Part shown: in pieces, positions 18,534 to 57,549 of the stretch
Numbering within the stretch: the first letter of the stretch is position 1
Layout: each line of letters begins with the position of its first letter
Assembly (NCBI GenBank): GCA_030390025.1
Contig: CM059431.1
Span: 122,018,001 to 122,082,000, forward strand
Direction of reading: 5' to 3'
From: Squalus acanthias
Lineage: Eukaryota
DNA: 64,000 nt
Position numbers and translations under genes: made by a program
Notes under the pieces: generated by a model
Database searches by the model: none
What the model was told of the DNA's origin: nothing
The model's input: only the letters and a program-made list of their open reading frames with translations

Positions 18534-18690
18534 CCTTGCTACTTTATAACAGTACTCAGGCCTTTGTATGTCAGGTTCCACCCTCCTCTAGCAACCTTCA
18601 AATGATGCGGAGATGCCGGTGTTGGACTGGGGTGGACAAAAGTGAGAAGTCACACAACACCAGGTTATAGTCCAACAGTTTTATTTGAAA

Positions 18691-18728
18691 TCACAAGCTT
18701 TCGGAGCTGCTGCCCCTTCGTCAGGTGA
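18691..18728 (-). ncRNA. Minimal hammerhead ribozyme motif (inverted-arm copy)
   Basis: Reverse complement reads tcac-CTGACGA-a-ggggc(agca)gctcc-GAAA-gc-TT-gtga. Confidence 0.78.
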
Positions 18729-18795
18729 AGTGAAGGAATACGAATCGGCAAAGCATATATAGACTATATGCTGTGCCGATTTGTATTTCTTCACT

Positions 18796-18833
18796 TCACC
18801 TGACGAAGGAGCAGCCGCTCCGAAAGCTTGTGA
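18796..18833 (+). ncRNA. Minimal type I hammerhead ribozyme motif
   Basis: tcac-CTGACGA-a-ggagc(agcc)gctcc-GAAA-gc-TT-gtga: intact core boxes, helix I tcac/gtga, 5-bp helix II, palindromic loopless helix III (AAGCTT). Confidence 0.8.
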
Positions 18834-20009
18834 TTTCAAATAAAACTGTTGGACTATAACCTGGTGTTGTGCGACTTCTCAACCTTCAAATGAGTTGAGT
18901 GCAAGGCTGCTTTAAATATCGGTGCTGGAAACGAGTCATCGATGATGTCATCAGATCCGCTCCATTTAATAGGGCTGGGAAAAGCGCAGGAGTCTTTCAA
19001 TTGGGGCCATTAAGTTAAAGTCGCTCTGAACAATGCGTTGCTCAGAACATCTTGTTCCCGACCCACTACGCGGTCCGCACGCCCAAGACCTGACTCCAAG
19101 GTAAAATTCCAGCCCAACTTTTTGACAAGAGTCAATGGAGCAACATAGGGAGGGAAATTACTATTGGCAGTAATAACCAATGAATGCTTAACACATTCAA
19201 ATGGCTTTCCTCTATCTGTTATTTTAATAGAGGGCACTAACCCATTTATTTTAAATAGGTTTACCCCTCTGTTAAAATTGCAGACAGTGGAATGCTATAC
19301 GAGCTTGTTAAGAATTCATCAGCTATCATCACCAACAGCTACATGTGTTAAAAAATGACACGGCTGGTTGATCAATATCTAAAAGTGGAAAAAACAAGTG
19401 ACCTTTGGGTGTGACCTTTCATCAGAAACCCTGTTCTGTTTGAGTAGTATTGACTCACAGCTATCTGTCATGAATCTGTTTAAGAATAAATGTTGTTTAT
19501 TTGCAATAGTTAAATTAGCATACCTTCAATTCATGTAATCCTGCGCCTGGCTGTGGGCTGCTGTGGGATTGGGGGACTGGAACAGATGTGGGACTGAGCC
19601 AACTTAGTTTTGTGCATGTAGAATGCATTGTTGCTAGGGATTATGTAAGTGTGTGTGGTAATAGATTTCAGTTCGTAAATGAATATGATGGATCGGGAGT
19701 CAAATTTCTTGAAGGATGCGTGACTGGAGGTGATGTTGTATTGAAGCCCATACCACTTATTTTATTTTCTATATAAAATATCTGTAAATCTGAAAATTCA
19801 GGAGAAATACATTTTGGTTTGACAGGCTGAATTACAGTAGGCTCTAAAATATTAGAAAATGCACCAAATAAAGTCTTCTTCCAAAAAGTGATGGACTGAT
19901 TGGTTTACCTGCAGCTGAGATAGTGGTCGACTGTATCCCATTGCACTTTCAATCTAACTGCTCCTCTTCACGTCTCAAAAGACCCATATTTATATTCGTT
20001 ACCTTTTTT

Positions 20010-20907: not shown

Positions 20908-23900
20908 TAGAATCATAGAGTCATAGAGTCATAGAGTTATACAGCACAGAAAGAGGCCCTTCGGCCCATCGTGTCCACGCCGGCCATCAAGCCCTGTCTA
21001 TTCTAATCCCATTTTCCAGCACTTGGTCCGTAGCCTTGTATGCTATGTCGTTTCAAGTGCTCATCTAAATGCTTCTTGAATGTGGTGAGGGTTCCTGCCT
21101 CTACCACCCTTTCAGGCAGTGAGTTCCAGATTCCAATCACCCTCTGGGTGAAAAAGTTTTTCCTCAAATGCCCTCTAAACCTCCTGCCCCTTACCTTGAA
21201 ACTATGCCTCCTGGTTATTGACCCATCTACGAAGGGCAAAAGTTCATTTCTATCTACCCTATCTATGCCCCTCATAATTTTGTACACCTCAATCAGGTCC
21301 CCCCTCAGCCTTCTCTGCTCTAAGGAAAACAACCCCAGCCTGTCCAGTCTCTCTTCAAAGCTGAAGCGCTGCAGCCCAGGTAACATCCTGGTGAATCTCC
21401 TCTGCACCCTCTCCAATGCAATCACATCCTTCCTATAGTGTGGCGACCAGAACTGCACACAGTATTCCAGCTATGGCCTAACTAGTGTTTTGTACAGCTC
21501 CATCATAACCTCCCGGCTCTTATATTCTATGCCTCGGCAAATGAAGGCAAGTATCCCATATGCCTTTTTAACCACCTTATCTACCTGTCCTGCTGCCTTC
21601 AGGGATCTATGTAAATGCACACCAAGGTCCCTCTGATCCTCTGTCCTTCCTAGGGTCCTACCATTCATTGTGTATTCCCTTGCCTTGTTAGTCCTCCCAA
21701 AATGCATCACCTCACACTTTTCAGGGTTAAATTCCATTTGCCACTGTTCTGCCCATCTGACCAACCCGTCTATATCGTACTGTAGCCTGAGGCTTCCCTC
21801 CTCGCTATTTACCACCCCACCAATTTTCGTGTCATCTGCGAACTTACTGATAATACCTCCTACATTCATATCTAAATCATTAATGTACACTACAAACAGC
21901 AAAGGACCCAGCACTGATCCCTGCGGTACACCACTGGACACAGGCTTCCAGTCACAAAAACAACCTTCGACCATCACCCTCTGCCTCCTGCCACTAAGCC
22001 AATTTTGGATCCAATGTACCAAGTTGCCCTGGATCCCATGGGCTCTTACCTTCTTGACCAGTCTCCCATGCGGGACTTTGTCAAAAGCCTTACTGAAGTC
22101 CATGTAGACCACATCAACTGCACGACCCTCATCCACACACCAAGTCACCCCCTCGAAAAATTCAATCAAATTGGTCAGACATGATCTCCCCCTGACAAAG
22201 CCATGCTGACTATCCTTGATTAATCCTTGCCTCTCGAAGTGGAGAGTAATTCTGTCCCTCACAATTTTTTCCAATAATTTCCCTACCACTGATGTCAGGC
22301 TCACTGGCCTGTAATTCCCTGGTTTATCCCTACTACCCTTCTTGAATAATGATACTATGTTAGCTGTTCTCCAGTCCTCTGGCACCTCCCCTGTGGCCAG
22401 AGAGGTTTTGAAAATTTGTGTCAGAGCCCCTGCAATTTCCTCCCTTGCCTCACATAGCAGCCTGGGATACATCTCGTCTGGGCCTGGGGATTTATCCACT
22501 TTTAAGCCCGCTAAAACCGTTAGTACCTCCTCCCTCTCAATACTAATTTGTTCAAGTATATCACAATCCCCCTGCCTGATTTCAATGCCTACATCGTCCT
22601 TCTCCATAGTGAACACAGATGCAAAATATTCATTTAAAACCCCACCTACATCTTCTGGCTCTACACACAGATTGCCACGTTGGTCCCTAATGGGCCCTAC
22701 TCTTTCCCTGGTTATCCTCTTGCCCTTAATATACTTATAAAACACCTTGGGATTTTCCTTGATTTTGTTCGCCAGTGTTATTTCATGGCCCCTCTTCGCT
22801 CTCCTAATTTCTTTTTTAAGTACCCCCCCTGCACTTTCTATACTCCTCTAGGGCTTCCACTGTTTTTAGTCCTTTGTATCTGCCAAAAGCCTCCCTTTTT
22901 TTCCTAATCCATTCTCGTACATCCCTTGACGTCCAGGGTTCCCTGGGCTTGTTGGTCCCACCCTTGACCTTTACGAGAACATGTTGCCGTTGTACTCTCT
23001 CTATTTCCTTTCTGAAAGTCTCCCACTGCTCTGATGTGGATTTTCCTACAAGTAGCTGATCCCAGTCCACTTCGGCCAGATCCTGCCTTATCATATTAAA
23101 ATCGGCCTTCCCCCAATTTAGAACCTTTATTTCCGGTCCATCTTTGTCCTTTTCCATGACTACCTTAAATCTCACCGAATTATGGTCACTGTCACCAAAA
23201 TGCTCTCCTACTGACACTTCTACCACTTGCCTGGCTACATTCCCTAGAATTAGGTCCAGTACCGCCCCCTCTCTTGTAGGACTTTCTACATGCTGGCTCA
23301 AAAAGCTCTCCTGGATGCACTTTAAGAATTCCGCACCCTCTAAGCCTTTCACACTCTGACTATCCCAGTTAATATTGAGGAAGTTGAAATCTCCTACTAT
23401 TATTACCCTGTTATTTCTACACTTCTCTGAGATTTGCCTACATATCTGTTCCTCTATCTCCACCTGACTGTTTGGGGGCCTATAGTACACTCCCAGCAAA
23501 GTGCTTGCCCCCTTTTTGTTTTAAGTTCTACCCATATGGCCTCATTAGAGGAACCTGCTAAGATATCATCCCTCCTTACAGCAATAATTGACTCCTTGAT
23601 TAATATTGCGACACCCCCTCCTCTTTTACACCCCCCTCTGTCTCGCCTGAATATTCTATACACCGGAATATTGAGCTGCCAGTCCTGCCCCTCCCTCAAC
23701 CATGTCTCTGTGATAGCAACAATATCAAAGTCCCATGTGTTCATCAACACCTTCAATTCATCTGCCTTACTCACAAGACTCCTTGCATTAATATAAATGC
23801 CATCCAGCCTTGCCATGCTCCCTTGTGCCGTTACATATTTGCTCTGCCTTCCAGGCTGACTTGTTTTTTCCTCTATATTTGGCTGTGCATCACCCCCTAC

Positions 23901-23955
23901 TATAGCTCCTCTCCGTATCCCATCCCCCTGCCAAGTTAGTTTAAACCGCCCCCAA
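20908..23955 (-). mobile_element. CR1 LINE with near-complete but disrupted ORF2 (APE endonuclease + RT)
   Basis: YINARSL..DIVAITETWL (APE), GDFN, SDHN, NYRPVSLTS, DFSKAFDKV, FADD. In-frame stop at 21471-21473 plus frameshifts. (TCATAGAG)n tail at ~20908-20937. Confidence 0.95.
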
Positions 23956-24304
23956 GATGTACCGTCATTTGGTAGGATAGCTACAGCATACCATACAGGA
24001 TAGGGCAGGCACAACCAATGAAAACACCAGTCAGCTGAGGCCTCAAATCTGCCTCCACCTCTTTCCAGAGATGCTGCATTGTTCAATGAAGGGGATGGTG
24101 CCGAGACGTAGTAAACAAGGCCACACACTTGCCATCACTTCATGCAGCAACAACTTCACTTTAGCCACCTTCAAACAGGAGGTGAGGTGCTCTACTGTTG
24201 TATACATTTGCCTGCAAATTCATGCCTGCACACTTGGTTGCCTTTCACTTTATTTTGAACTGTCACCTCATCAGCCTTCTTCCTCTTCAGTCTTGGTGAA
24301 TTGC

Positions 24305-25751
24305 TGCAGATTGGAGGGTGGCAAATGTAACCCCACTATTTAAAAAAGGAGGGAGAGAGAAAACACGGAACTACAGACCAGTTAGCCTAACATCAGTAGT
24401 AGGGAAAATGCTCGATGTGATAACAGGACACTTAGAAAATACCAATGGGAGTAGACAAAGTCAACATGGATTTATGAAAGGGAAATCGTGTTTGACAAAC
24501 CTACTGGAGTTTTTTGAGGATGTAACTGGTAGAATAGATAAGGGAGAACCAGTGGATGTGGTGTATTTGGATTTTCAGAAGGCCTTTGATAAAGTCCCAC
24601 ATAAGAGGATAGTGTGCAAAATTAAAGCACATGGGATTGGGGGTAATATACTGGCATGGATTGAAAATTGGTTAACAGACAGGAAACAGAGAGTAGGAAT
24701 AAATGGGTCTTTTTTGGGGTGGCAGGCGGTGACTAGTGGGGTACCACAGGGATCAGTGCTTGGGCCCCAGCTATTCACAATACATATCAATGATTTGGAT
24801 GAGGGAGCCAAATGTAATATTTCCAAGTTTGCTGACGACACAAAACTAGGTGGGATTGTGAGTTGTGAGGAGGATGCAAAAAGGCTTCAAGGCGAATTAG
24901 ACAAGTTGAGTGAGTGGGCAAAAACATGGCAGATGCAGTATAACGTGGATAAATGTGAAGTTATCCACTTCGGTAGGAAAAGCAGAAAGGCAGAGTATTA
25001 TTTAAATGGTGGTAGATTGGGAAATGTTGATGTGCAGAGGCACCTGGATGTCCTTGTACACCAGTCACTGAAAGCAAACATGCAGGTGCAGCAAGCAGTT
25101 AGGAAGGCAAATGGTATGTTGGCCTTCATTACAAGAGGATTTGAGTAAAGGAGCAAAGATGTCTTACTACAGTTATACAGGGCCTTGGTGAGACCACACC
25201 TGGAGTACTGTGTGCAGTTTTGGTCTCCTTACCTAAGAAAGGATATACTTGCCATAGAGGGAGTGCAGCGAAGGAAACCAGACTGATTCCTGGGATGGCA
25301 GGACTGTCGTATGAGGAGAGATTGGGTCGACTAGGCCTGTATTCACTAGAGTTTAGAAGAATGAGAGGGGATCTCATTGAAATGTTCTGACAGGGCTAGA
25401 CAGACTGGATGCAGGGAGGATGTTTCCTCTGGTTGTGGGGTTGAGAACGAGGGGTCACAGTCTCAGGATACGGGGTAGGACATTTAGGACTGAGATGAGG
25501 AGAAATTTCTTCACTCAGAGGGTGGTGAACCTGTGGAATTCTCCACCACAGAAGACTGTGGAGGCCAAGTCACTGAATATATTTAAGAAGGAGATAGATA
25601 GATTTCTAGACACAAAAGGCATCAAGGGGTATGGGGAGAGAGCGGGAATATGGTATTGAGATAGAGGATCAGCCATGATCATATTGAATGGCGGAGCAGG
25701 CTCGAATGGCTAAATGGCCTACTCCTGCTCCTATTTTTCTATGTTTCTATG
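24305..25751 (+). mobile_element. 5'-truncated CR1 LINE (RT region + 3' UTR)
   Basis: ORF 24318-25148 has RT motifs, followed by downstream fragments and a (TTTCTATG)n tail. Confidence 0.95.
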
Positions 25752-29516: not shown

Positions 29517-29600
29517 ATCAGTTCTGACGAAAGGTAAATCGCCCTGAAACGTTGACTCTGTTTCTCTCTCCACAGATGCTGCCTGACCTGCTGAGCATGT
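29517..29600 (+). mobile_element. Degenerate Penelope pLTR end fragment with hammerhead-like motif
   Basis: cagttCTGACGAaaggtaaatcgccctGAAACGTTgactctgtttctctctccacagatgctgcctgacctgctgag is homologous to 55064-55140. Confidence 0.75.
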
Positions 29601-29893: not shown

Positions 29894-30790
29894 GTCCCAG
29901 ATTTTGCGGTAATAATAACAGTGAGGTTATCAGTGCTCGCCATTATTATGGGGTAAATCGGACAGCAACTTCTGGTGTTCGCACATGTGCAGTTAAATGC
30001 GGAAATCCGGGAGTTGCTATCTGAAGTACCCTGCTCCTCCACAGGGTGCGCTGTTGCAGTCCTCGCCCATAGACTCAGCATTGAAGTGTCAGCAATAGTA
30101 TGAACTTGCTGTACCTGCTCACTAGTTTCGCACTAAAAACGGCTGAAAAAGTTAGGGCTGGTGCATTCAGGAGCAAGTGGGGGTGAAATTTGACATGGGC
30201 GGGAACGCAAAGCGGGTGGAATCGCATCTGACACCCGTTATATGTCCCGTCCAATATTCCGTTCCATTGATTTCAATAGAACTTAATATCGGGCAGGGCG
30301 TATAACGGGCGACAGATGCGATACTGCCCGTTTTGCATCACTGTCCAAGTCGAATTTCACCCCCAGTGAGTTTTTAATGCCGTGATAAGTGATAATTACT
30401 GCTGAACAATCTCCCTGGCCCTGAAAATTTAGTTTTACTAATGTGAGGTCTCATTCCCTCAGAAGAAAACCAGTGTTGGGGATTTTTAAAAAATTCAAAT
30501 AACTTTTTTTTACTTTTTCTGTCTGTCTCTTTTATCTCTCTCCCTTAATCCCATTTGTATTTCCCAATCTTTATTTGTTTTCTTACATTATTTAAATCTA
30601 ATTTATATTTCTTGCTTTATACTTCCTGGTTGAGGCTCTGCTTGTCTCAGTGAAGATTCTTCAATTTGATTGGTTGAAGAGCCTCATGCTCACAGATGCC
30701 ACAGATCCCCTGTAGGGGGCGTCGCGCTGGACCAGACGCCGGATTAGAGCAAGTCTGTGCTCTAAAGACAGCTGACTGCAAAATCTGGAC
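29894..30790. mobile_element. Non-autonomous DNA transposon with a nested palindromic MITE (30179-30364)
   Basis: Outer ccagattttgc...gcaaaatctgg inverted termini. Inner gggggtgaaattt...aatttcaccccc with a central ccattgatttcaatag palindrome. Confidence 0.7.
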
Positions 30791-33921: not shown

Positions 33922-35540
33922 TCATAGAATCATAGAATCATAGAATGGTTACAGCACAGAAGGAGGCCATTCGGCGGTCGAGCCCGTGCCAGCTCTCTGC
34001 AAGAGCACTTCAGCTAGTCCCACTCCCCCTGCCCTTTCCCTGTAGCCCTGCAATTTTTTTTCCTTCAGGTACTTATCCAATTCCCTTTTAAAAGCCATAA
34101 TTTTGTCTGCCTCCACCATCCTTTCAGGCAGTGCACTCCAGATCCTACTCATTTGCTGCATAAAATAGATTTTCCTCATATCACCTTTGGTTCTTTTGCC
34201 AATCACCTTAAATCTGTGACCTCTGGTTCTCAACCCTTCTGCCAATGGGAACAGTTTCTCTCTATCTACTCTGTCTAGATCCCTCATGATTTTGAATACC
34301 ACTCTCAAATCTCCACTCAACCTTCTCTGCTCTAAGGAGAACAACCCCAGCTTCTCTAGTCTATCCATGTAACTGAAGTCCCTCATCCCTGGTAGCATTC
34401 TCGTAAATCTTTTCTGCACCCACTCTAAGGGCTTCACATCCTTCTTAAAGTGCGGTGCGGATAATTGGACACAATACTCCAGTTGAAGCCGAATCAGCAT
34501 TTTAGAAAGGTTCATCATAACTTCTTCGCTTTTGTACTCCATGCCTCTATTTAAGAAGCCCAGGATCCCATATGCTTTGTTAACTGCTTTCTCAACCTGC
34601 CCTGCCACCTTCAAAGATTTGTGCACATATACCCCCAGGTCTCTCTGTTCATGCATCCCCTTTAGGATTGTAGCCTTTTGTTTATATTGCCTCTCCTCGT
34701 TCTTTCATCTGCCACGTGTCCGCCCATTTCACCAGCCTGTCTATGTTTTCTTGAAATCTATCACTATCCACCTCACTGTTCAATATACTTCCAAGTTTTG
34801 TGTCATCTGCAAATTTTGAAATTGTGCCCTGTACTCCCAAGTCCAAGTCATTAATATATATCAAGAAAAACAGTGGACCTAGTACTGACCCCTGAGGAAC
34901 ACCACTGCTTACCTTCCTCCAGTCCGAAAAATAATCGTTCACCACTGCTCTCTGTTTGCTGTCACTTAGCCAATTTTGTATCCATGCTGCCACTGTCCCT
35001 TTTATTCCCTGGGCTTTAACTTTGCTGGCAAGCCTATTATGTGGTACTTTATCAAATGCCTTTTGGAAATCCATGTACACCACGTCAACCGCGTTGCCCT
35101 CATCAACCCTCTCTGTTACCGCATCAAAAAACACCATCAAGTTAGGTAAACATGATTTGCCTTTAACAAATCCATGCTGGCTTTCCTTAATTAATCCATA
35201 CTTGTCCAGGTGACTGTTAACTTTGTCCCAGATTATCGTTTCTAAAAGCTTCCCCACTATCGAGGTTAAACTGACTGGCCTGTAGTTGCTGGGTTTATCC
35301 TTACACCCTTTTTTGAACAAGGGTGTAACATTTTCAATTCTCCAGTCCTCTGGCACCTGTATCTAAGGAGAATTGAAGATTATGGCCAGTACCTCTGTGA
35401 TTTCCTCCTTAATCTCCCTCAGCATCCTAGGATGCATCCCATCCAGTCCTGGTGACTTATCAACTTTAAGTACAGACAGCCTTTCTAGTACCTCCTCTTT
35501 ATCAATTTTTATCTCATCCAGTATCTCCACTACCTCTTCT
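33922..35540 (-). mobile_element. 5'-truncated CR1 LINE (RT region), with internal deletion
   Basis: ORFs 34682-35356 and 33949-34656 carry CR1 RT motifs. (CATAGAAT)n tail at ~33922-33946. Confidence 0.95.
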
Positions 35541-38303: not shown

Positions 38304-38433
38304 ATGATGTGGAGATGCCGGTGTTGGACTGGGATGGACAAATGTGAGAAGTCGCACAACACCAGGTTATAGTCCAACAGCTTTATTTGAAATCATAAGC
38401 TTGCGGAGCTGCTGCTCCTTCATCAGGTGAAGT
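38304..38433 (-). mobile_element. Single-arm copy of the 18606-18880 Penelope-derived family; hammerhead core mutated (GAAA to GCAA)
   Basis: Closely matches 18602-18732. Inserted in an old CR1 fragment (38150-38570) with imperfect catggg..cat flanks. Confidence 0.85.
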
Positions 38434-38569
38434 CATGGGGGCATAGATACAACTGGTGAAGGTAAGTTATGGGGTAATGCAAGGACATTTCTTCACACAA
38501 AGAGATGTTAATACCTGGAATGGTCTTCTGGGTAGGATAATGGAGGCAAAAACTTTGAAGTCATTCAAG

Positions 38570-41299: not shown

Positions 41300-44200
41300 T
41301 CTCTTGGTTACCTACGAAGGGCCCATTGAGGCACGCATCGCTGCCTCCTCATGAGCAGCAACCCCAACTGTCCCATCCTACTCTCTCACTGACCTTCCCA
41401 CCCAACGTGCCCACTGGGAGCAAATCTTCCCAATCTCCTCCCCATCCAACACATCCTCCCCAGTGCTGACTCTGTGGACACTGGCAGTGGGTCAGCCATC
41501 ACCGACCCTCTCCGCATCTCCCTCCAGAATGTCCATTCACTTGTGAACAAGGCCCTTGCCATCCATGAGCTTATCGTGGATGATTGCATCGACATCATGG
41601 CCCTGACGGAAACTTGGTTGAGGGGTGATGACACCTTACCATTAAATGAAGCCTTCCTGCCTGGCTATACCTTCCACCACTTGCCCTGCTCAGACTGCCG
41701 TGGTGGCGGTGTGGCTCTCATTACCAAATCACACCTTGGTCTGTCCTCCTACTCCTCCGGCACTTTCTCCTCCTTTCAGCATCTCACCTTATTCCACCAC
41801 TCTCACCTCTCATTTAAAATTCTTGTTCTCTACCGCCCACCCAAGTACCACAAAAATGTTATCTTCACTGCTGTCCTCCCTCAGCCTCTGCACCGAACGA
41901 CTTCTCATCCTTGGTGATTTCAACCTCCATCTCAATTCATCATGCTCTCTCTCCTCTGACTTCACTAGCCTCCTATCCTCCCTTAATCACTCCCTCCATG
42001 TAAACTCCCCAACCCATATTCACAGCCATTCCCTTGATCTTGTCATCTCTTGTGGCCTCGCTACTCCCATCATGTCAATCGCAGATAAGGCTATCTCTGA
42101 CCACTTCCTCGTATCGCTCTCCACTCACATCCCACTTCCAACCACCCCCACCCCCTCCAACTCTACTTCCTTCTGTGTCCACCCCTGGAAAAAACACTCT
42201 CCCAACCCTTTTATAACTGCACTTATGAAAGCCCAACTGTCCAGCCTTTGGCTCTCCATTCACCATGACATTTCTGCAGCTACCGATCTGCTCAACCACA
42301 CCCTCATCACCATCTTTTATGTCCTATTTGATATTAAAAGAATTACTCTCTCTCATCCTGGCCACACACCCTGGTACGGCCCTCATCTTCACTCCCTTAA
42401 GTCCAAGGGACACAGAATTGAACGGATTTGGTGGACAACTGGTTTAGCCATTCACCGCCAGATCTGGCTGCACCACATAAAGCTTTATTGGGTCCTGCTC
42501 TCGTCTGCCAAACTTGCTCACTATTCCAGAATTATTCTGGAATACAAAGATAAACCCCAGCTCCTATTCGTACTGCTAACCATATTCTTAAACCCCTCTC
42601 CCCTGTCTGCTCCACCCTCACCTCCGACAACAAGTGAGAAGAGCTCATGGACTTCTTTGTCACTAAGATTGAGACCATCCATTTAACCGCCCCTGCTACT
42701 TCCCTTCCTTCCCGAGCTCACCAGGCCAAACTTCCTCTAAGGTTCCCTCCTGCCCTGGCCCTGAACTCACATCTTTCGCCAGTTTCTCTCCGCTCTCCCC
42801 TCATGACCTTTCTACGCTCATCTTGTCCATGAGACCCACCTCCTGCTCCCTCGACCCTATTCCCACCAAACTGCTGACCACCCAACTTCCTTTTCTGGCT
42901 CCCATGTTAGCTGACATTGTTAATGGTTCTCTCTCCTCAGGTACTGTCCCCCTCTCCCTCAAATCTGCTGTCATCACCCCTCTCAAAAAAACAACCCTTG
43001 ACCCCTCTGTCCTTGCAAACTATTGCCCCATCTCCACCCTCCCTTTCCTCTCCAATGTCCTAGAATGTGTTGTTGCCTCCCAAATCTGTGCCCATTTTTC
43101 CCGCAATGCCATGTTTGAATCCCTCCAATCAGGTTTCCGCCCTTGCCACAGTACCAAAACGGCTCTCATCAAAGTCACAAATGACATCCTTTGTGACTGT
43201 GACAAAGGTAAACTATCCCTCCTCATCCTTCTTGAATTGTCTGCAGCTTTTCACACAGTTGACCATGCGATCCGTCTCTAATGCCTCTCCACCGTCGTCC
43301 AGCTGGGTGGGACTTCACTCGCCTGGTTCCATTCTTATCTATCTAATCGTAGTCAGAGAATCACCTGCAACAGCTTCTCTTCCCGCTCCTGCATCTTTAC
43401 CTCTGGTGTCCCCCAAGGATCTATCCTTGGCCCCCTCCTACGTCTCATCTACATGCTGCCCCTTGGTGACATCATCCAAAAACACAGCGTCAGTTTCCAC
43501 ATGTATGCTGACGACACCCAGCTCTACCTTACCACCACTTCTATCGACCCCTCCACTGTCTCTAAATTGTCAGACTGCTTGTCTGACATCCAGTTCTGGA
43601 TGAGCAGAAATGTTCTCCAATTAAATATTGGGAAGACCGAAGCATTGTTTTCAGTCCTCGCCACAAACTCCATTCCCTAGCCGTTGACTCCATCCCTCTC
43701 CCTAACATCTGTCTGAGGCTGAACCACACTGTTCGTAACCTTGGTGTCATATTTGACCCTGAAATGAGCTTCCAACCACATATCTGCAGCATAACTAAGA
43801 CCGCCTATTTCCACCTCCGTAACATCGCCCGTCTCCGCCCTTGCCTCAGCTCATCCACTGCTGAAATCATCATCCATGTCTTTGTTACCTCTAGACTTGA
43901 CTATTCCAACGCATTCCTGGCTGGCCTCCCACATTCTACTCTACGTAAACTTGAGGTCATCCAAAACTCGGCTGCCCGTGTCCTAACTTGCACAAAGTCC
44001 CGTTCACCCATCACCCCTGTGCTCGCTGACCTACATTGGCTCCCGGTTAAGCAACGCCTCGATTTCAAAATTCTCATCCTTGTTTTCAAATCCTTCCAAG
44101 GCCTCGCCCTTCCTTATCTCTGTAATCTCCTTCAGCCCCACAACACCAACGGCCCCCCCCCCCGCCCCCCCGAGATATCTGCGCTCCTTTAATTCTGCCC

Positions 44201-44491: not shown

Positions 44492-47400
44492 GTATAAATG
44501 CAAAGATTAGACAAGAGTGTAGCAAAGGTAGTGTGATTTTAATGGGGGATTTTAACTTTCATATAGATGGGGATAAACTGACTAGCACCTGTCAGAAAGG
44601 TAATTAATTTCTTTAGTGTGTCCAGGATAGTTTTCTCCAACAATATATCCTAGAGGCAACAAGGGGGCATGTCATATTAGATTTAGTAATGAGTAATGAG
44701 CCAGATTTAGTTAACTGCCTAACTGTGCGTGAACATTTATCCAATAGCAATCATAACATGATTGAGCTCAATGTAGCGTTTGAAAGGGTGAAACGCGATA
44801 CAGCTACTGAGATTCTAGATTTGGGTAAGGCCGACTTCAAAGGGATGAGACAGAGACTGTCCACAGTAAACTGGGCAAATCTATTAATAGATAAAATGAC
44901 AGAAGATCAGTGGGAGATGTTCAAAAAATAATTTAATGTGATACGGAGCCAGTTTATACCCCTGACGGGCAAGAGCTCTACTTGCCAAAAAAAACAGCCA
45001 TGGACAACTAAAGAGATAAGGGACAGCATAAAACTAAAAGAAAAAAGCATACAAAAATGCAAAATATAGCACAAATCCTAGCGAATGGGAAAGATACAAA
45101 GAACAGCAAAGGGTCACAAAACAGAAAGTAAGAGCTACAAAAAGGGAGTCTGAAAAGAAACTTGCAAGGGATATGCAAATCAACACTTTTTTTACAATTA
45201 TATTAGGAAAAAGAGGGTAGTCAGGAGTAATATTGACCCCTTAAAAACTGAAAGCGGTGATATTATCAATGATAATAAGGAATAATTACTTTGTGTCAAT
45301 ATTTACAGTAGAGGAAGAGGATAGCATGCCAGAAATCCCAAGGAAACAAAATCAGGGACTCAATGAAATTAATGTAAGTAAAATAACAGTAATGAAGAAA
45401 ATAATGGCACTAAAGAGTGACAAATCACCAGGACTAGATGGTTTCCATCCCAGGGATTTAAAGGAAGTAGGTGAGTACATTGCAGATGCTCTAATTATAA
45501 TCTTCCAAAGTTCTCTTGATTCAGGAACCGTTCCTTTAGATTGGAAAATTGTGCATGTCACTCCGCTATTTATGAATGGCGAGAGAGGGAAACCAAGGAA
45601 TTATAGACCAGTTAGCCTAACATCTGTTGTTGGGAAATTGCTAGAGTCAATGGGCACGAAATTCAGTTACGCCCCATTTAGGGGCAGTAATCGAATTTAG
45701 CGCCCGGTGTGGAAGTACTGCCGCAGCCACTAAGTTCGGCTTACCGCCCCACACAGAAAGTGGAGCGCAATCTCGGGCGCTCCACCTCCTGGTGGTGCGG
45801 TAACCGAGGTGATGTCGGGGCGCGATCGGCAGCGCTCTGCGGAGGCTCCGCGGTGCGCTGCCACTTTTCAATGCCCCTCCGCTCCAGTTAAAGGGGAGGG
45901 CTGCTGCGCACTCTGCACAGCATCCGATGGTCTCAACTAGGCCACCAGGGTGGCGTGGTGCCGGGCTGCACGATGGCTGCCAGCACTACTCCACTGCCCA
46001 CCACGGAGGGCCAACCTTGAGGTTGGCCAAAACCAGAAAATTGCGGTGTGGGTCGCGGCCACACCTCCCCTTTAAATACTGCCCCACGAGCGGAGGACCG
46101 CCCGTTCACGACCCACGAGGCTGGCGCTGACACCGCCTGTGATAACCTCGCGGGGCACAGCCGAATTTCTGCTGCAGGGCGGTAAGGGGTCACGGTGGGG
46201 CAGTAAGGGGTTGCGGCGCATGCCGTTGACATCATCGCTGGCTGCGGCCCGGGGTGCTACTGGCAGGACATGGCGCTATCGGGTAGCGCCTCAGCAATGC
46301 CTTGCTGAATTTCTCGGGAGGCGCTTTCCCCCCCCCGCCCCACCCCCCCGCAGGCAATAAGCCCTTTGCCGGAGGCGCTAATGGCAGGCAAAAAGGAGCC
46401 AAATTTCTAGCCCTATAATTAAGGATAGGGTGACTGAACACCTCGAAAATTTTCAGTTGAGCCAGGATGGATTTGTGAAAGGTAGGTCATGCCTGACAAA
46501 CCTGATTGAAATTTTTGAAGAGGAGACTAAAGTAGTGGACAGGGGAATGTCTACGGATGTTATTTATATGGACTTCCATAAGAGACTGTTAACTAAGGTA
46601 GAAGCCCATGGAGTTGAGGGCAAATTATTGACCTGGTTAGGAAATTGGCTGAGCGGCAGGAGACAGGCCGTAGGGTTAATGGGTTGGTACTCAAATTGGC
46701 AGAATGTGACTAGTGGTGTCCCGCAGGGATCTGTGTTGGGGCCTCAACTACTCATAGTATTTATTAATAACTTAGATGATGGCATAGAAAGTGCTATATC
46801 CAAATTTGCCAATGACACAAAGATAGGCGGCATTGGAGGTAGTGTAGATGAAAGCATAAAATTACAAAGGGATATCGACAGATTAAGTGAATGGGCAAAA
46901 CTATGGCAAATGGATTTCAATGTAAACCAATGTGAGGTCATCCACTTTGGACCTAAAAAGGATAGAACAGGGTACATTCTAAATGGTGAAAAGCTAAAAA
47001 CAGTGGCGGTCCAAAGAGACTTGGGGGTCCAGGTACATAGATCATTAAAATTTCATGAACAGGTACAGCAAATGATCAAAAAGACTAATGGGATGCTGGC
47101 CTTTATATCTAGAGGACTAGAATACAAGGGGGTAGAAGTTATGCTGCAGCTATACAAAACCCTGGTTAGACCATACCTGGAGTACTGTGAGCAGTTCTGG
47201 GCACCACACCTTGGAGGGAGTCCAGCGTCGGTTTACCAGAATGATACTTGGGCTTCAAGTATTAAGTTACAAGTAGTGATTACACAAATTAGGGTTGTAT
47301 TCCCTAGAATTTAGAAGATTAAGGGGTGATCTGATCGAAGTTTTCAAGATATTAAGGGGAACAGGTAGGGTAGACAGAGAGAAACTATTTCCACTGGTTG

Positions 47401-51565: not shown

Positions 51566-52671
51566 ATTTTGTTATCTCCTACTAAGCATAGCTAATTAGT
51601 ATAAAACAACCTATTCTTTCCATCTTCCAATTTAAAAATAAAATATCTTTGCTGACTTGAGTCTTGTTTTGGACACAAACCCTGCTAATTATTTAATCTG
51701 AATTACTACTAAAGATGAAATTCCTTCCCTCACCCATTTTGCCCCTATTTCTGATAAATTGCAGTGTGCTTTACGTTTCCAGCAAATTACTCTTTTTAAT
51801 ATGCTAATGATTTTAAAACAGTGCAGTGCTTCCTGTGGTGGTATCAACATAATGAAATGGCAGAGATAGCCCACGTAGTTCCTGTCTGGCAGCGCAAACA
51901 ACACTGTATGAAGAACAAAATAGGCTTGTAACACCAGGTCCCCATTCTGCAGAGAAGGAAAACATCCGAGAAGAACGTGCAAGTGATCTCCAAGATCAAA
52001 GGAGACTTGGGGGAGGGGGAACAGTAGGAAGTGCTTTAATGATGGTCTCTGGCAGACGAAATAGAAATTATCACCATTCAGGGATCAGTGAAGACAACTG
52101 AAGGTGAACTTGACACCACAGAATAACTCACTCAGCAGAGGAGAAGTCTGACCAAGCTTTTGTCACTAAATCCTTTGCTGGTGTGGAGATAAAAGAGGTG
52201 CATCTTCAAAACTCAGATAATAAACAGCACATCAATAAGTAACGTATTGAATTTACAATGCCTACACATATGTAGTGTCTTCATGATTCTACAAGTATAA
52301 TCTACAGAATATCTAAAACAACATTAAGTTGAACAAATTTTGTATCTTTCCTATATTTATAGCCAAATAGTGCATATACTGGAGCCTCAAGAGCCACAAG
52401 TAAAGTTGAAATCCATGTTCCCATTAATTTGCATATTTTAAAGATCCTAATACGAAGAGAACTTGGTGTTCTGAGTGTGGATTTTCTCACCAATTAAAAG
52501 ACCTTTCCATACCGCCCAGCTTAAAAAGTACAAAAGGATAAACCAGCAACTAAAAAATATAAGAGCAAATAGGTCTGAGATGCATGGGTTTTGTGAGCCA
52601 GATGTCCAGGGCTTGAGGCTGCCTGTGACTCATGCCTCAGTTTAGACACCCAGTCCAGTATTCCCCTCTTT

Positions 52672-53180
52672 GGAGCAAAGTTCCGACAGGGTGGAACTTC
52701 TGCCCACCCTCCAAATCGACCCCAACCGTGACTAATTTTCCTAGGTTTGGGTCATCAGGATTCCCACCTTCAAGATGGAGTCCGCCAGTACAACAAGGAC
52801 AAGCGAGGCTGCTGCTGCAGCACCTGAAAATGCAGCAAGAGACCTTAAAGGGGCAGAACGCCCCAAAGATTGGAATTAATGTCCCACTGAAGATCTTGGT
52901 CGTGACCGGTGTCTTCAGCAGGTGAGGTTTGGAGGGTTATATGAAGGGAGATCAGGTTGGTACAGTGCCCTCTCCCTCCATGGGAGCACCTCAGGCCAGT
53001 ATGCCACCTCTTCTTGGGTGGGGAAGGAGAGGCCAGTGGCAGTCGGGAGGGAGCAAGCGGAGAGAAATATTGGTTTAGGTGGTGAGGTGATTGTAGGCCT
53101 CTCCAACTATATTTTCTTTCATTTTCCACTGCTCTACCACCTGATTTTAGGAAGGATCACAGATGAAATTTCCGACCCCC
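52672..53180. mobile_element. Degenerate non-autonomous DNA transposon
   Basis: Right end gaaatttccgaccccc is of the same type as other Harbinger-like termini here. Left end is uncertain. Confidence 0.35.
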
Positions 53181-53337
53181 TGCTCTAAACTAACAGATGG
53201 CTCAATAAACTTTTGAGATAACTCTTATTGTAATTAATACGATAGCAAAATACTGCAGATGCTGGAAATCCGAAATAACAACAGAAAACGCTGGAAAAAC
53301 TCAGCAGGCCAGGCAGCATCCGTGGAGAGAGAAAGAG

Positions 53338-53374
53338 AGTTGACGTTTCAGGTCGATGACCTTTCATCAGAACT
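53338..53374 (-). ncRNA. Hammerhead ribozyme motif, inverted-arm copy
   Basis: Exact reverse complement of 55064-55100. Confidence 0.82.
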
Positions 53375-53542
53375 GGGAAGAGCTGGAAATCAAATAGATT
53401 TAAGGCCAGGGTAAAGCTGGGAAAAGGGGGAGGGGATAAAGGAACAAAGGAGGAGATGAAGAGACATTAAGAGACATTAAGAGATATGCAAGGCTAGAGG
53501 TGGTGTTAATGTGACAGATTAAGGCTGAATGAAGTGTGAAAT

Positions 53543-54787
53543 GAACTTGTTCTCACATTGAACAACTTCTCCTTTGACTCTACCCATTTCCTCCAAATTA
53601 AAGGTGTTGCTATGGGTACCCGCATGGGTCCTAGCTATGCCTGCCTTTTCGTGGGATATGTGGAACACTCTTTGTTCCAGTCCTACTCGGGTCCCCTCCC
53701 TCACCTCTTTTTCCGGTACATTGATGACTGTATCGGTGCCGTCTCCTGCTCTCGCCCTGAACTAGAACATTTCATTCACTATGCTTCCAATTTCCACCCT
53801 TCCCTCACCTTCACATGGTCCATCTCCGACTCTTCTCTTCCCTTCCTCGACTTCTCCATCTCCATCTCTGGGGATAGGTTATTGACTAACATTCACTACA
53901 AGCCCACCGACTCCCACAGCTACCTGGACTACACTTCCTCCCACCCCGCCTCCTGTAAGGACTCTATTCCATTCTCCCAGTTTCTCCGTCTCCGCCGCAT
54001 CTGCTCTGATGATGCCACCTTCCATACCAGTGCTTCCGACATGTCTTCCTTTTTCCTCAACCGAGGATTCCCCTCTACCGTGGTCGACACGGCCCTCGAC
54101 CGTGTCCGTTCTATCTCCCGCACATCTGCCCTCACCCCTGCCCCTCCCTCCCGGAACCACGATAGGGTTCCCCTTGTCCTCACCTTTCACCCCACCAGCC
54201 TCCACATTCAACGGATCATCCTCCGCCATTTCCGCCACCTCCAGCGTGATCCCACCACCAAACACATCTTCCCCTCACCTCCCCTTTCAGCATTCCGCAG
54301 GGACCGCTCCCTCCGCGACACCCTAGTCCACTCCTCTACCACCCCCAGCACCCCTTCCCCTTCGCCCGGCACCTTCCCGTGCACGCGCAGGAGATGCAAC
54401 ACATGCCCTTATACCTCCCCTCTTCCCACTGTCCAGGGCCCCAAACACCCCTTCCAGGTGAAACAGCGATTTACTTGTACTTCCTGCAATTTAGTATACT
54501 GTATTCGCTGCTCACGATGTGGACTCCTCTACATTGGGGAGACCAAACGCAGATTGGGTGACCGCTTTGCGGAACACCTCCGTTCAGTCCGTAAGGGGGA
54601 CCCCGAGCTCCCGGTGGCCTGTCACTTTAATTCACCGCTTCACTCCCACTCTGACCTCACCGTCCTCGGCCTAATACACTGTTCCACGGAAGCTCAGCGT
54701 AAGCTCGAGGAACAGCACCTCATCTTTCGTTTAGGCACGCTACAGCCCTCTGGACTCAATATCGAGTTCAACAATTTTAGATCATAA
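53543..54787 (+). CDS. Penelope ORF C-terminal part: RT palm/thumb + GIY-YIG endonuclease (no true start codon; truncated)
   Basis: QIKGVAMGTRMGPSYA, RYIDD, LPFLD, YKPTD, CxRxRCxxC linker, LVYCIRC..LLYIGETKRRLGDRFAEH, GLN. The frame is uninterrupted from the inversion junction to TAA at 54787. Confidence 0.93.
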   Translation, partial: ELVLTLNNFSFDSTHFLQIKGVAMGTRMGPSYACLFVGYVEHSLFQSYSGPLPHLFFRYIDDCIGAVSCSRPELEHFIHYASNFHPSLTFTWSISDSSLPFLDFSISISGDRLLTNIHYKPTDSHSYLDYTSSHPASCKDSIPFSQFLRLRRICSDDATFHTSASDMSSFFLNRGFPSTVVDTALDRVRSISRTSALTPAPPSRNHDRVPLVLTFHPTSLHIQRIILRHFRHLQRDPTTKHIFPSPPLSAFRRDRSLRDTLVHSSTTPSTPSPSPGTFPCTRRRCNTCPYTSPLPTVQGPKHPFQVKQRFTCTSCNLVYCIRCSRCGLLYIGETKRRLGDRFAEHLRSVRKGDPELPVACHFNSPLHSHSDLTVLGLIHCSTEAQRKLEEQHLIFRLGTLQPSGLNIEFNNFRS

Positions 54788-55063
54788 CCTCAGCTCCAAT
54801 CACATTTATATTTTATTTTATCCACCCTTTTATTTGTCCCCCCCACCTTTTTTTTCCTCCTAGAAGCTGGCAGCTGTCCTTCATTCTGCCAGTAGATTTC
54901 ACACTTCATTCAGCCTTAATCTGTCACATTAACACCACCTCTAGCCTTGCATATCTCTTAATGTCTCTTAATGTCTCTTCATCTCCTCCTTTGTTCCTTT
55001 ATCCCCTCCCCCTTTTCCCAGCTTTACCCTGGCCTTAAATCTATTTGATTTCCAGCTCTTCCC

Positions 55064-55100
55064 AGTTCTGATGAAAGGTCATCGACCTGAAACGTCAACT
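55064..55100 (+). ncRNA. Minimal type I hammerhead ribozyme motif in the Penelope 3' region
   Basis: agtt-CTGATGA-a-aggtc(atc)gacct-GAAA-cg-TC-aact: intact core, GUC cleavage triplet, helix I agtt/aact. Confidence 0.82.
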
Positions 55101-55751
55101 CTCTTTCTCTCTCCACGGATGCTGCCTGGCCTGCTGAGTTTTTCCAGCGTTTTCTGTTGTTATTTCTTATTGTAATTAAGTTGTGTTTATACTTAGGCAG
55201 TATCTCCTTACTCTTCCGTGTCTTACACGGGATCTTAATTTCCTGAGGTAATAAAAAATTAATTGAACTGTGACTTTAGCATACATTATCCATACATGTA
55301 TCCTGGTGTTATTTATCAAACAGGTCCAATAGTGCCTGCTTATAAATTGGACATTATTCTGTCCTCTTCAAAAAATAAATTTTTGCTACACAATATTTAC
55401 TTTACTGGGAGAGGGCAGCACAGACCTGGGGAATGTTCTGTGCCATTCTGAACATAAGGTTAAGAAAAGCTATTTTGATTGAAAGGTATTCAAAGGCGAT
55501 GCAGTGTGATATTTATGATATTTATTGATAATTGGGATGTATAAACGAATTTGCAGTTCTGTTTCACCTTTAATGTCCTCAGGACATCCCAAAGCACTTG
55601 GACACTTTATAGCCAATAAATTACTTTTGAAGTGTAGTCCTTGTACCTTTTCAGACAAACGTGGCAGCCAATTTGTGTGCAGTAAAGTCCCACAGACAAT
55701 AATGAGATGAATAAACAGTTAACCTGTTTTGGGTGGTAGTTGAGAAGTAAA

Positions 55752-57549
55752 GGGGAAACATTTGTGTTCGCCAGCTAAGTTGCCGGTGTCACAGCAACTA
55801 CAATTAACGGCCGCTGGAAATGGCCACAACGCTAACTGACTGAAATTGGTCTGGGGGGCATGGAGATAGGTGGTGCAGTGTTCACCTGCCATGCAACACC
55901 GCCCTGATTCGGTGTTGCAGCTTCCCACAGCCTCTGTGAGCGAAGCTGTGGCACTCACAAGGAATTATGGGTAATGAAGAGGTCTGAGAATTAAGGGGGC
56001 CATGCACGCTGAAGCAATGCAAAACAAAATGCAGTGAATCAATACATTTTTCAGCCCTTTCTGCCTTTTAAGAAATATGCAATATTTAAATGTGAATATT
56101 CAGCTGTTAAAGCTGAATTACCTTCCTAAACTCAAGGAATGGGAAAACTGCCTCAGCACTAACACAAATGGCTCAGCAAGCCAGCGAAGGGGAACTGAGG
56201 GTCTCATACGCAGCACTCCAGTTTTGTGCAGAGGGTCAACACTGCAAGAGCGGCCCTCTACCCAGAGGGGCCAGGAGGCCCTCCAGAAACAATGATGTGG
56301 GAGTACATCACTAATGCCGTCACTGCCAACAGTGTCACCCCCACCACTTGGTTCCAGTGCCCAAAGAAGCTTCATGACCTCTGACCACTAGTCAAGGTCA
56401 GACAATGCATCTTCAAAAGCCGTCTCCTACCAACTGCACCACTAGCTTCACACACTGCTCAATGCATAACCCCCAATCACTCATCTACCAACAAACTGCA
56501 CCAATGACAAGGCACATCTCCCATTCCTAGCCTCACCTCACCCCTTTGGAGGAGACAGTGCAGGCCATTCTTGGCAGGGGCATGGTTTAGTCCTTAGCCA
56601 GTGGTGAGGCTGAAAGGATACAAGATGCTAGTATCCTCGTACATTATCCTCCTTCTGGCATGCACCTCTTGATTTCCTGCCCTCCCATCAGCACAACTCC
56701 ATCCTTGTGCCTTCCCCATTTCACACACCCAAGAAATGCAGCCTGCCCAGCCAGTGGGTCAACAAGAAGAGGCAGCCTGCCCAGCCAGTGGGACCACAGG
56801 CTGATGATTCCATCCTAGGTATCCCGGACACAAAGGGGCTGTCTGGGATGCATCCTTCCATCTAATTCCTCCTCTTCGGCTTCCTCCTCTTCTGTGTCTT
56901 CCTCTTCCCTCTGTAAGCGAATGCTGTAAATGTGAATTGACAGCATAAAATGCTGGAAATACTCAGTTGGTCAGGCAACATGTTGACCTGAGACGTGAAC
57001 TCTGTTTTTCTCTCCACGGATGTTGCGTGACCTGCTGAATATTCGCAGCATGTTCTGTCTTCTCAAAGGCTTTCATTTACCATCCGAGCCCTTGCAAGCA
57101 TCCAGCAGCACTCCCGACACACTTAAAAAACTTTTCACCTCTATTGCAGCAAGCCACCACTTCAATAAAATCATAAAAAAGTCCAAATCATTCAATTCAA
57201 ACTTACCTGAATGATGTGTGTGTCCCTTTAAGAGCTGCAGACATCGCCACTGTCAGACACTGTCAGCCTGCTTGCACGGCAGGTTAACCTGCGTGCTTAG
57301 GACCCAGCGCTGAATTCAGTGCTAGGGTCGAAGGTCGGGTTGGTGACGTTAAGTCGACATTACATGCTGATTGACGTCACCACGCCTTTTTTTTTCCAGG
57401 GTGCTGCCCGTTACCGGCAGCACAAAGGGGGAGCGGAATATGGCGGCCGGTGTGGGTCCCACCACTAGCTGGCGAAAGAGTGGCTGCCGCCATTTTAATG
57501 CCATTTCATGACGTTACGGAGTGGCAATAAGTATATGAATTTCTAGCCC
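55752..57549 (+). mobile_element. Defective Harbinger element with Myb/SANT remnant (~56168-56400) and a nested mini Penelope fold-back (56941-57060)
   Basis: ggggaaacattt...aatttctagccc termini and a TWFQCPKKLHDL-like peptide. 56941-57060 matches the ends of the 53-55 kb arms in both orientations. Confidence 0.7.

Follow-up and report, generated by a model that had tools for sequence, protein, structure and literature searches.

Positions 53223–55179 of the window (the whole 64,000-nt stretch of DNA that was analyzed) almost certainly hold a Penelope-like insertion. As far as its sequence tells, this is a non-autonomous, 5′-truncated copy of a Penelope-like retrotransposon with a C-terminal endonuclease and a Neptune/Nematis-type linker. 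The structure is ordinary for the class and already in print, and the insertion is recent. New here are an empty allele in organism A and in a related organism, the hammerhead motifs, and a second family with the same anatomy. A preliminary description of this DNA, which had overlooked the hammerhead motifs and the second family, had proposed that the insertion's anatomy records the mechanism of integration. It does so, but the anatomy is the standard published one of the class and not a new one.

Contigs of four out of 24 listed sequencing runs were compared with the window over 52500–56000. Runs X1 and X5 are from organism A, which is the best match to the window, X6 is from the related organism B, and X11 is from organism E. 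X5 comes from a different study than X1. The features of the insertion are as follows.

53223–53237, plus strand: left target-site duplication, an exact repeat, of which the empty sites of X1 and X6 have one copy
53238–53271, minus strand: 34-nt element-derived tail, on the inverted arm only, with no counterpart after 55166
53272–53542, minus strand: inverted pLTR arm, 271 nt, 100% complementary to 54896–55166
53338–53374, minus strand: predicted minimal type I hammerhead motif, inverted copy, from a descriptor scan
53542, no strand: inversion junction, with a single base (T) common to the arm and the family ORF
53543–54787, plus strand: 5′-truncated uninterrupted ORF with RT motifs B to E and thumb, a CX4CxxC linker and a GIY-YIG nuclease with CCHH residues
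54788–54895, plus strand: 3′ untranslated stretch, absent as a repeat from the left arm, delimited by the ORF end and the arm alignment
54896–55166, plus strand: pLTR arm in direct orientation (271 nt), which stops at the tail-less (proximal) site
55064–55100, plus strand: predicted minimal type I hammerhead motif, from the descriptor scan, with a predicted cut after 55096
55165–55179, plus strand: right target-site duplication, whose first two bases are common with the element end

The 15-nt direct repeat at 53223–53237 and 55165–55179 is exact and has no third occurrence in the window. The right arm ends in TC, the two bases with which the repeat begins, so the duplication measures 15 bp, or 13 bp if TC is counted as element. 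The preliminary description had given the same range and the same shared bases. The data favor neither reading of the target. A 4-bp inverted repeat (53220–53223 and 55179–55182) flanks the 15-bp target, whose nicks would both lie at A/GTT (the slash marks the nick). Under the 13-bp reading, the nicks would lie at TAA/G on both strands.

Alignment of 53272–53542 with 54896–55166 is gapless and gave 271/271 complementary nucleotides, upholding an earlier visual impression that the arms have no mismatch. The tail extends the left arm continuously in this alignment and accounts for the 34 extra nucleotides that had been noticed there. The right side, in turn, is longer by 1353 nt without a left equivalent. 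Given these extra parts on each side, neither arm is a plain copy of the other. These 1353 nt separate the two arms; at the junction, one base is shared and there is no palindrome. A 7-nt match between the arm and the upstream ORF sits 13 nt before the junction and is unused in the join. The tail end is a recurrent boundary of the family, because family contigs diverge into unlike sequence before 53238 in X11 (267 contigs) and before 53244 in X1 (158) and X6 (169).

A possible hairpin in the left flank and target is no better than shuffles (z −0.37). A search of Rfam over 53000–55400 gave one chance snoRNA match (E 4) and no hammerhead. A 21-letter pattern scan found no viral stretches and nine metagenome stretches, none alike beyond 21–22 nt; eight of the nine are at pattern length and one is under the cut-off.

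The frame is stop-free from 53540 to 54787 (414 codons). It is element-derived from the shared T at 53542, and the first full element codon is at 53543. Its content is the 3′ half of a reverse transcriptase, a linker zinc finger and a GIY-YIG nuclease. RT motifs B, C (YIDD at 59) and E and the thumb are kept, and motif A and DKG are absent. As had been proposed, the ORF thus begins mid-RT at the inversion junction; the break lies between motifs A and B. Since the first catalytic aspartate and a start are missing, the copy cannot move itself. Loose contig ends before 53542 occur in all four runs (37, 46, 56 and 55 contigs), and the family frame continues upstream. The preliminary description was also right that the ORF is uninterrupted and CpG-rich: its observed/expected CpG ratio is 0.73, versus 0.24–0.48 in five decayed LINE-type stretches of the window.

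We compared the encoded protein with 120 long relatives, which have 36–55% identity to it and most of which have RT Pfam matches. The linker, CX4CxxC at residues 280–288, has the same spacing in 112 of the 120. C323 and C326 lie within the GIY-YIG motif, and H345, H361 and H367 are nearly invariant. The Pfam match to GIY-YIG is weak (21.8 bits; the curated cut-off is 22.6). N-terminal statistics cover the first 115 of the 120 relatives listed. These have a median of 485 residues (range 308–721) upstream of the truncation point, so the N-terminal loss in this copy is about 485 residues by this comparison. DKG is found upstream of the matched part in 113 of the 115, a region that the truncation removes here.

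Among named proteins, those of the whale shark, zebra shark, bamboo shark and rays match best (58–71% identity), which makes a cartilaginous fish the most likely host. Penelope-like elements are known from the whale shark (PMC8455134; bioRxiv 10.1101/443036), and PMC4350176 reports them in all vertebrates that it surveyed. Two ray proteins, P0124 and P0142, match the ORF over 100% and 80% of its length. Because they are named as host-gene isoforms and yet match the ORF, element sequence has apparently been taken up into their annotations. An ATG in the hammerhead core, which opens a 43-codon frame through the tail, was dropped as a candidate start codon, because a similar peptide occurs in 1 of 240 relatives, where it is C-terminal, and because other copies have ACG at this position.

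Several features are those of EN+ Penelope-like elements. A reverse transcriptase and, C-terminally, a GIY-YIG nuclease are joined in a single ORF, and a CCHH motif has two cysteines inside GIY-YIG, bearing out the earlier assignment to a GIY-YIG Penelope-like element. There is also a pLTR with a tail in the 30–40-nt range on one end, a target-site duplication, and a predicted hammerhead motif in the pLTR of both arms. Going by the feature descriptions in PMC8557442, we assign the copy to the Neptune/Nematis type, and not to Penelope/Poseidon, Naiad or Hydra. Neptune and Nematis, as described there, have a C-terminal GIY-YIG whose motif contains two cysteines, and between RT and nuclease a linker of the form CX2-5CxxC, all of which resemble the present copy. 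The linker zinc finger rules out the Penelope/Poseidon clade, and the C-terminal rather than N-terminal nuclease rules out Naiad/Chlamys. The Hydra clade, in which CCHH is absent and the linker is CxCX5C, is ruled out by the CCHH and CX4CxxC linker found here. A DNA transposon or MITE is also ruled out, as the left repeat is set in by the 34-nt tail and the interior encodes an RT-nuclease.

In LINE-1 twin priming, both target ends prime cDNA and an inverted 5′ part lies inside one duplication, and in these respects it resembles the route that we propose below. However, the inverted part of such LINE-1 copies comes from an internal stretch and the 3′ end is not repeated. The present insertion has two copies of 271 nt of the 3′ end, which does not fit a LINE-1-type twin-primed inversion.

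Both arms carry a predicted minimal type I hammerhead motif. The descriptor scan for such motifs gave four matches in the window and none in 200 dinucleotide shuffles. Two of the four form a second pair of different sequence, near 18724 (minus strand) and 18800 (plus strand). The descriptor was drafted after the first motif had been seen, so this second pair is an independent check. Minimal type I hammerheads of metazoan Penelope-like elements are described in PMC4209133. The motifs found here resemble them in the conserved core, an extra base before helix II, a short helix I, self-complementary helix III positions 15.2–16.2 and the occurrence of pairs on opposite strands. By contrast, helix II has 5 bp in the motif predicted here, and 7–8 bp in Schistosoma as given in that paper.

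The second pair of hammerhead motifs belongs to an insertion of a second Penelope-like family, at 18592–18893. Its repeat is 14 bp long, its tail of 37 nt is confined to the inverted arm, and its 117-nt arms differ at six positions; the center measures 5 nt, and there is no ORF. Each arm contains one minimal hammerhead motif, and two bases are common to the element end and the target at the tail-less end. The sequence A/GTTG is found at the tail-side target boundary of both clean insertions (55179–55183 and 18893–18897); across the window, this 5-mer has a per-position frequency of 0.0009. Both this sequence and the 2-nt overlap come from two cases noticed after the fact, and are leads only.

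The window contains other relics of these families. A solo, hammerhead-bearing piece of the first family is present at 29519–29595; it is 88% alike, and its helix II contains a mismatch. At about 56913–57080, the hammerhead end and part of the tail of this family occur in an older inverted copy, which is decayed and has no reliable duplication. The second family is also represented by a solo arm plus tail at 38304–38438, which is about 92% alike to 18602–18736. A 108-nt inverted repeat at 30163–30380 is 74% complementary, has a 2-nt center and no clear match to either Penelope-like end, and is possibly an old non-autonomous DNA element. Decayed LINE-type fragments are found at 21003–24134, 24300–25148, 33949–35362, 41393–44192 and 45245–47314. 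No host gene or exon was found in the frames scanned; of eight other frames of the window that were scanned, seven have no Pfam match and one is a LINE-type RT.

An empty allele with a single repeat had been predicted, and contigs from two of the runs contain it directly. In X1, one contig of 2155 nt crosses from flank to flank with a single 15-mer; its positions 468–1191 correspond to 52500–53222, and its positions 1–467 to 55165–55612. In X6, one contig of 1003 nt crosses the empty site (442–649 and 1–441), also with a single 15-mer. For X5, the empty allele is implied: a 543-nt contig spans 55165–55594, and the depth left of the site is equal (14.2). X11 hardly covers the flanks adjoining the site and gives no verdict on the orthologous site.

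The X1 flanks differ from the window at 6/1171 nt and, in addition, by a gap of 1 nt and an indel of 19 nt, and the X6 flanks differ at 49/1160 nt; these counts leave out one repeat-overlapping piece each (6/257 in X1 and 23/~260 in X6). The right flank of X5 equals the window at 430/430 aligned nucleotides, and X1 and X5 differ from one another at 53192 and 55324. Given both of these observations, the window lies within the variation of organism A and probably belongs to this organism. The insertion site is probably polymorphic or private to this haplotype. Assembled contigs drop variants, and X1 or X5 may be heterozygous. The 19 nt of the indel, at 55340 and thus 160 nt right of the insertion, are absent in the window and present in X1, X5 and X6. 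A separate high-copy repeat at 55542–55658, about 360 nt right of the insertion, has very high depth in all four runs.

The insertion had been called very young. The empty allele supports this and is a better sign of youth than arm identity, which on its own only bounds the divergence. With no differences in 271 nt, the upper bound is 1.1% (95%). This corresponds to roughly 8 million generations at 7e-10 per base per generation, a rate taken from another shark species, the epaulette shark (PMC10587355). Judging from the contigs that cross the site, the insertion is recent enough for the empty allele to persist.

The family is abundant in all four runs. Its UTR bin (54840–54956) has a depth relative to an ORF bin of 0.36 in both organism A runs; for organisms B and E the value is less than 0.004. 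By this measure, the first part of the direct arm is subfamily-specific UTR. Although contig depths, when summed, do not give a copy number, the hundred-fold contrast suggests that the subfamily multiplied in the lineage of organism A. An intact donor elsewhere is presumed, and the lineage, which had been called recently or currently active, may still be active.

As to how the insertion arose, we lean toward two-ended priming, in which a staggered double nick lets both target ends prime reverse transcription, at start sites 34 nt apart. First, the RT-EN protein of the presumed intact donor would nick both strands of the AT-rich target, 13–15 bp apart, yielding two 3′ overhangs; the duplication is observed, and such nicks would account for it. 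Next, each overhang would prime reverse transcription on element RNA. The left overhang would use the distal start site, at the tail end, and give 305 nt. The right overhang would use the proximal site 34 nt upstream, possibly aided by 2-nt pairing, and give about 1625 nt. The two different ends are observed, and in vitro work on Poseidon suggests by analogy that each reflects a priming event. Finally, the cDNAs would be joined nearly blunt, with one shared base, and filling of the gaps would duplicate the target; this repair route is our reading of the observed junction. One donor may have supplied two RNAs as templates, or a single tandem transcript may have served with both of its pLTR-plus-tail copies.

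Several observations are consistent with two-ended priming. The arms are unequal, the empty site has exactly one 15-mer, and the tail end recurs as a family boundary. The second family in the window is built alike, with its repeat and its tail on the inverted arm only. The target is 75% AT over 55 nt, in agreement with the preference of Poseidon. [quoted passage not shown] The insertion studied here resembles PAc in having a hammerhead upstream of two ends that are a tail-length apart, and in its AT-rich target.

Other observations weigh against two-ended priming. PAc belongs to a different clade, Penelope/Poseidon, which lacks the linker zinc finger, and the experiments described in PMC11167929 do not rebuild an inverted insertion. 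Its start site is described there as not homologous to the target, whereas both of the two clean insertions in our window share 2 nt with the target proximally. The donor is itself a presumed one, the tail hairpin is at the level of shuffles (z −0.75; 60/300 shuffles as good), and energy folding gave the active hammerhead fold neither as a monomer nor as a dimer. Moreover, PMC3846280 explains inverted copies differently, by self-priming on an antisense template.

The main rival, which we consider possible but rather unlikely, is that self-priming (fold-back) was followed by deletion and trimming. Here, a long cDNA would fold back and copy itself into a palindrome, one side of which would then be deleted across the center, and a nuclease would shorten one end by 34 nt during resolution. 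Such copying would leave the arms perfectly identical, and the window's second insertion, with its 5-nt center, comes close to a palindrome. Self-priming from palindromes at inverted junctions is proposed in PMC3846280, and PMC8557442 ascribes the tail to nuclease-mediated resolution. However, the arms of the insertion are 1353 nt apart and their junction, with one shared base, is not a palindrome; for this reason, self-priming requires two additional steps. In addition, both ends correspond to in vitro RT start sites of Poseidon as described in PMC11167929.

An older insertion seems improbable. In that case, the insertion would be fixed in a sister species or population outside the runs, and slow mutation, or conversion between the arms, would account for their likeness. 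The shark mutation rate in PMC10587355 is low, neither organism A run has a filled allele among the matches listed, and the window differs from X1 by the flank differences given above, including the 19-nt indel common to X1, X5 and X6. The X5 flank and the differences between X1 and X5 speak against it, since they put the window within organism A's variation, as do the intact frame and its CpG content.

We regard two separate insertions, in which a truncated copy was already in place and a short inverted one landed at its 5′ end, as very improbable. The family is very abundant and, according to PMC11167929, Poseidon nicks its own pLTR in vitro, so that such a landing can be imagined. However, a single duplication brackets the whole unit and there is none at the junction, and the same build recurs at 18592–18893. 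The arms are also identical, although only 15,772 of 80,249 X1 contigs are at least 99% alike. Least credible of all is an assembly artefact or somatic event: filled junctions were not found in any of the four runs among the matches listed, but a mis-join would not yield an exact 15-bp duplication of a sequence that is single at the empty site, the tail ends at the recurrent boundary of the family and the truncation point is in frame.

Whatever the route, an inverted truncated copy, a tail on one end and a target duplication are typical of these elements (PMC3846280, PMC8557442, PMC8969392), and PMC3846280 presents an empty allelic site as well. The closest published structure is Pen2 of Adineta vaga (PMC3846280; Fig. 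2 of PMC8557442). Like the present insertion, Pen2 has a 5′-truncated body with an inverted truncated copy at its 5′ end, a 30–40-nt tail on one end only, a duplication around the whole unit and a single-copy empty site. In the rotifer, as these sources describe it, the duplication is 8–10 bp, versus 13–15 bp here, in what is most likely a cartilaginous fish host, and our insertion differs in having neither a direct upstream pLTR nor a junction palindrome. A literature search that covered few subscription papers and neither Repbase nor supplements found no report on polymorphic shark Penelope insertions, or on two-ended or twin priming in Penelope.

According to PMC11167929, the later steps of Penelope integration are not validated. 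The mechanism is not settled by one insertion. A clean insertion together with its empty allele does, however, fix the duplication and both priming ends. The findings point to a subfamily that was amplified recently in a slowly evolving vertebrate, and which could supply many pairs of filled and empty alleles. As a more speculative idea, which we consider doubtful, a lineage-specific Neptune-type subfamily may still be transposing and inserting by fixed rules: one target end would always prime at the tail end, the other would use the proximal site and pair there over about 2 nt, and the nick on the tail side would fall at A/GTTG. If this were true genome-wide, the in vitro claim of homology-free initiation would need qualifying, and the pairs of filled and empty alleles would chart in vivo those steps of Penelope integration that are still unresolved.
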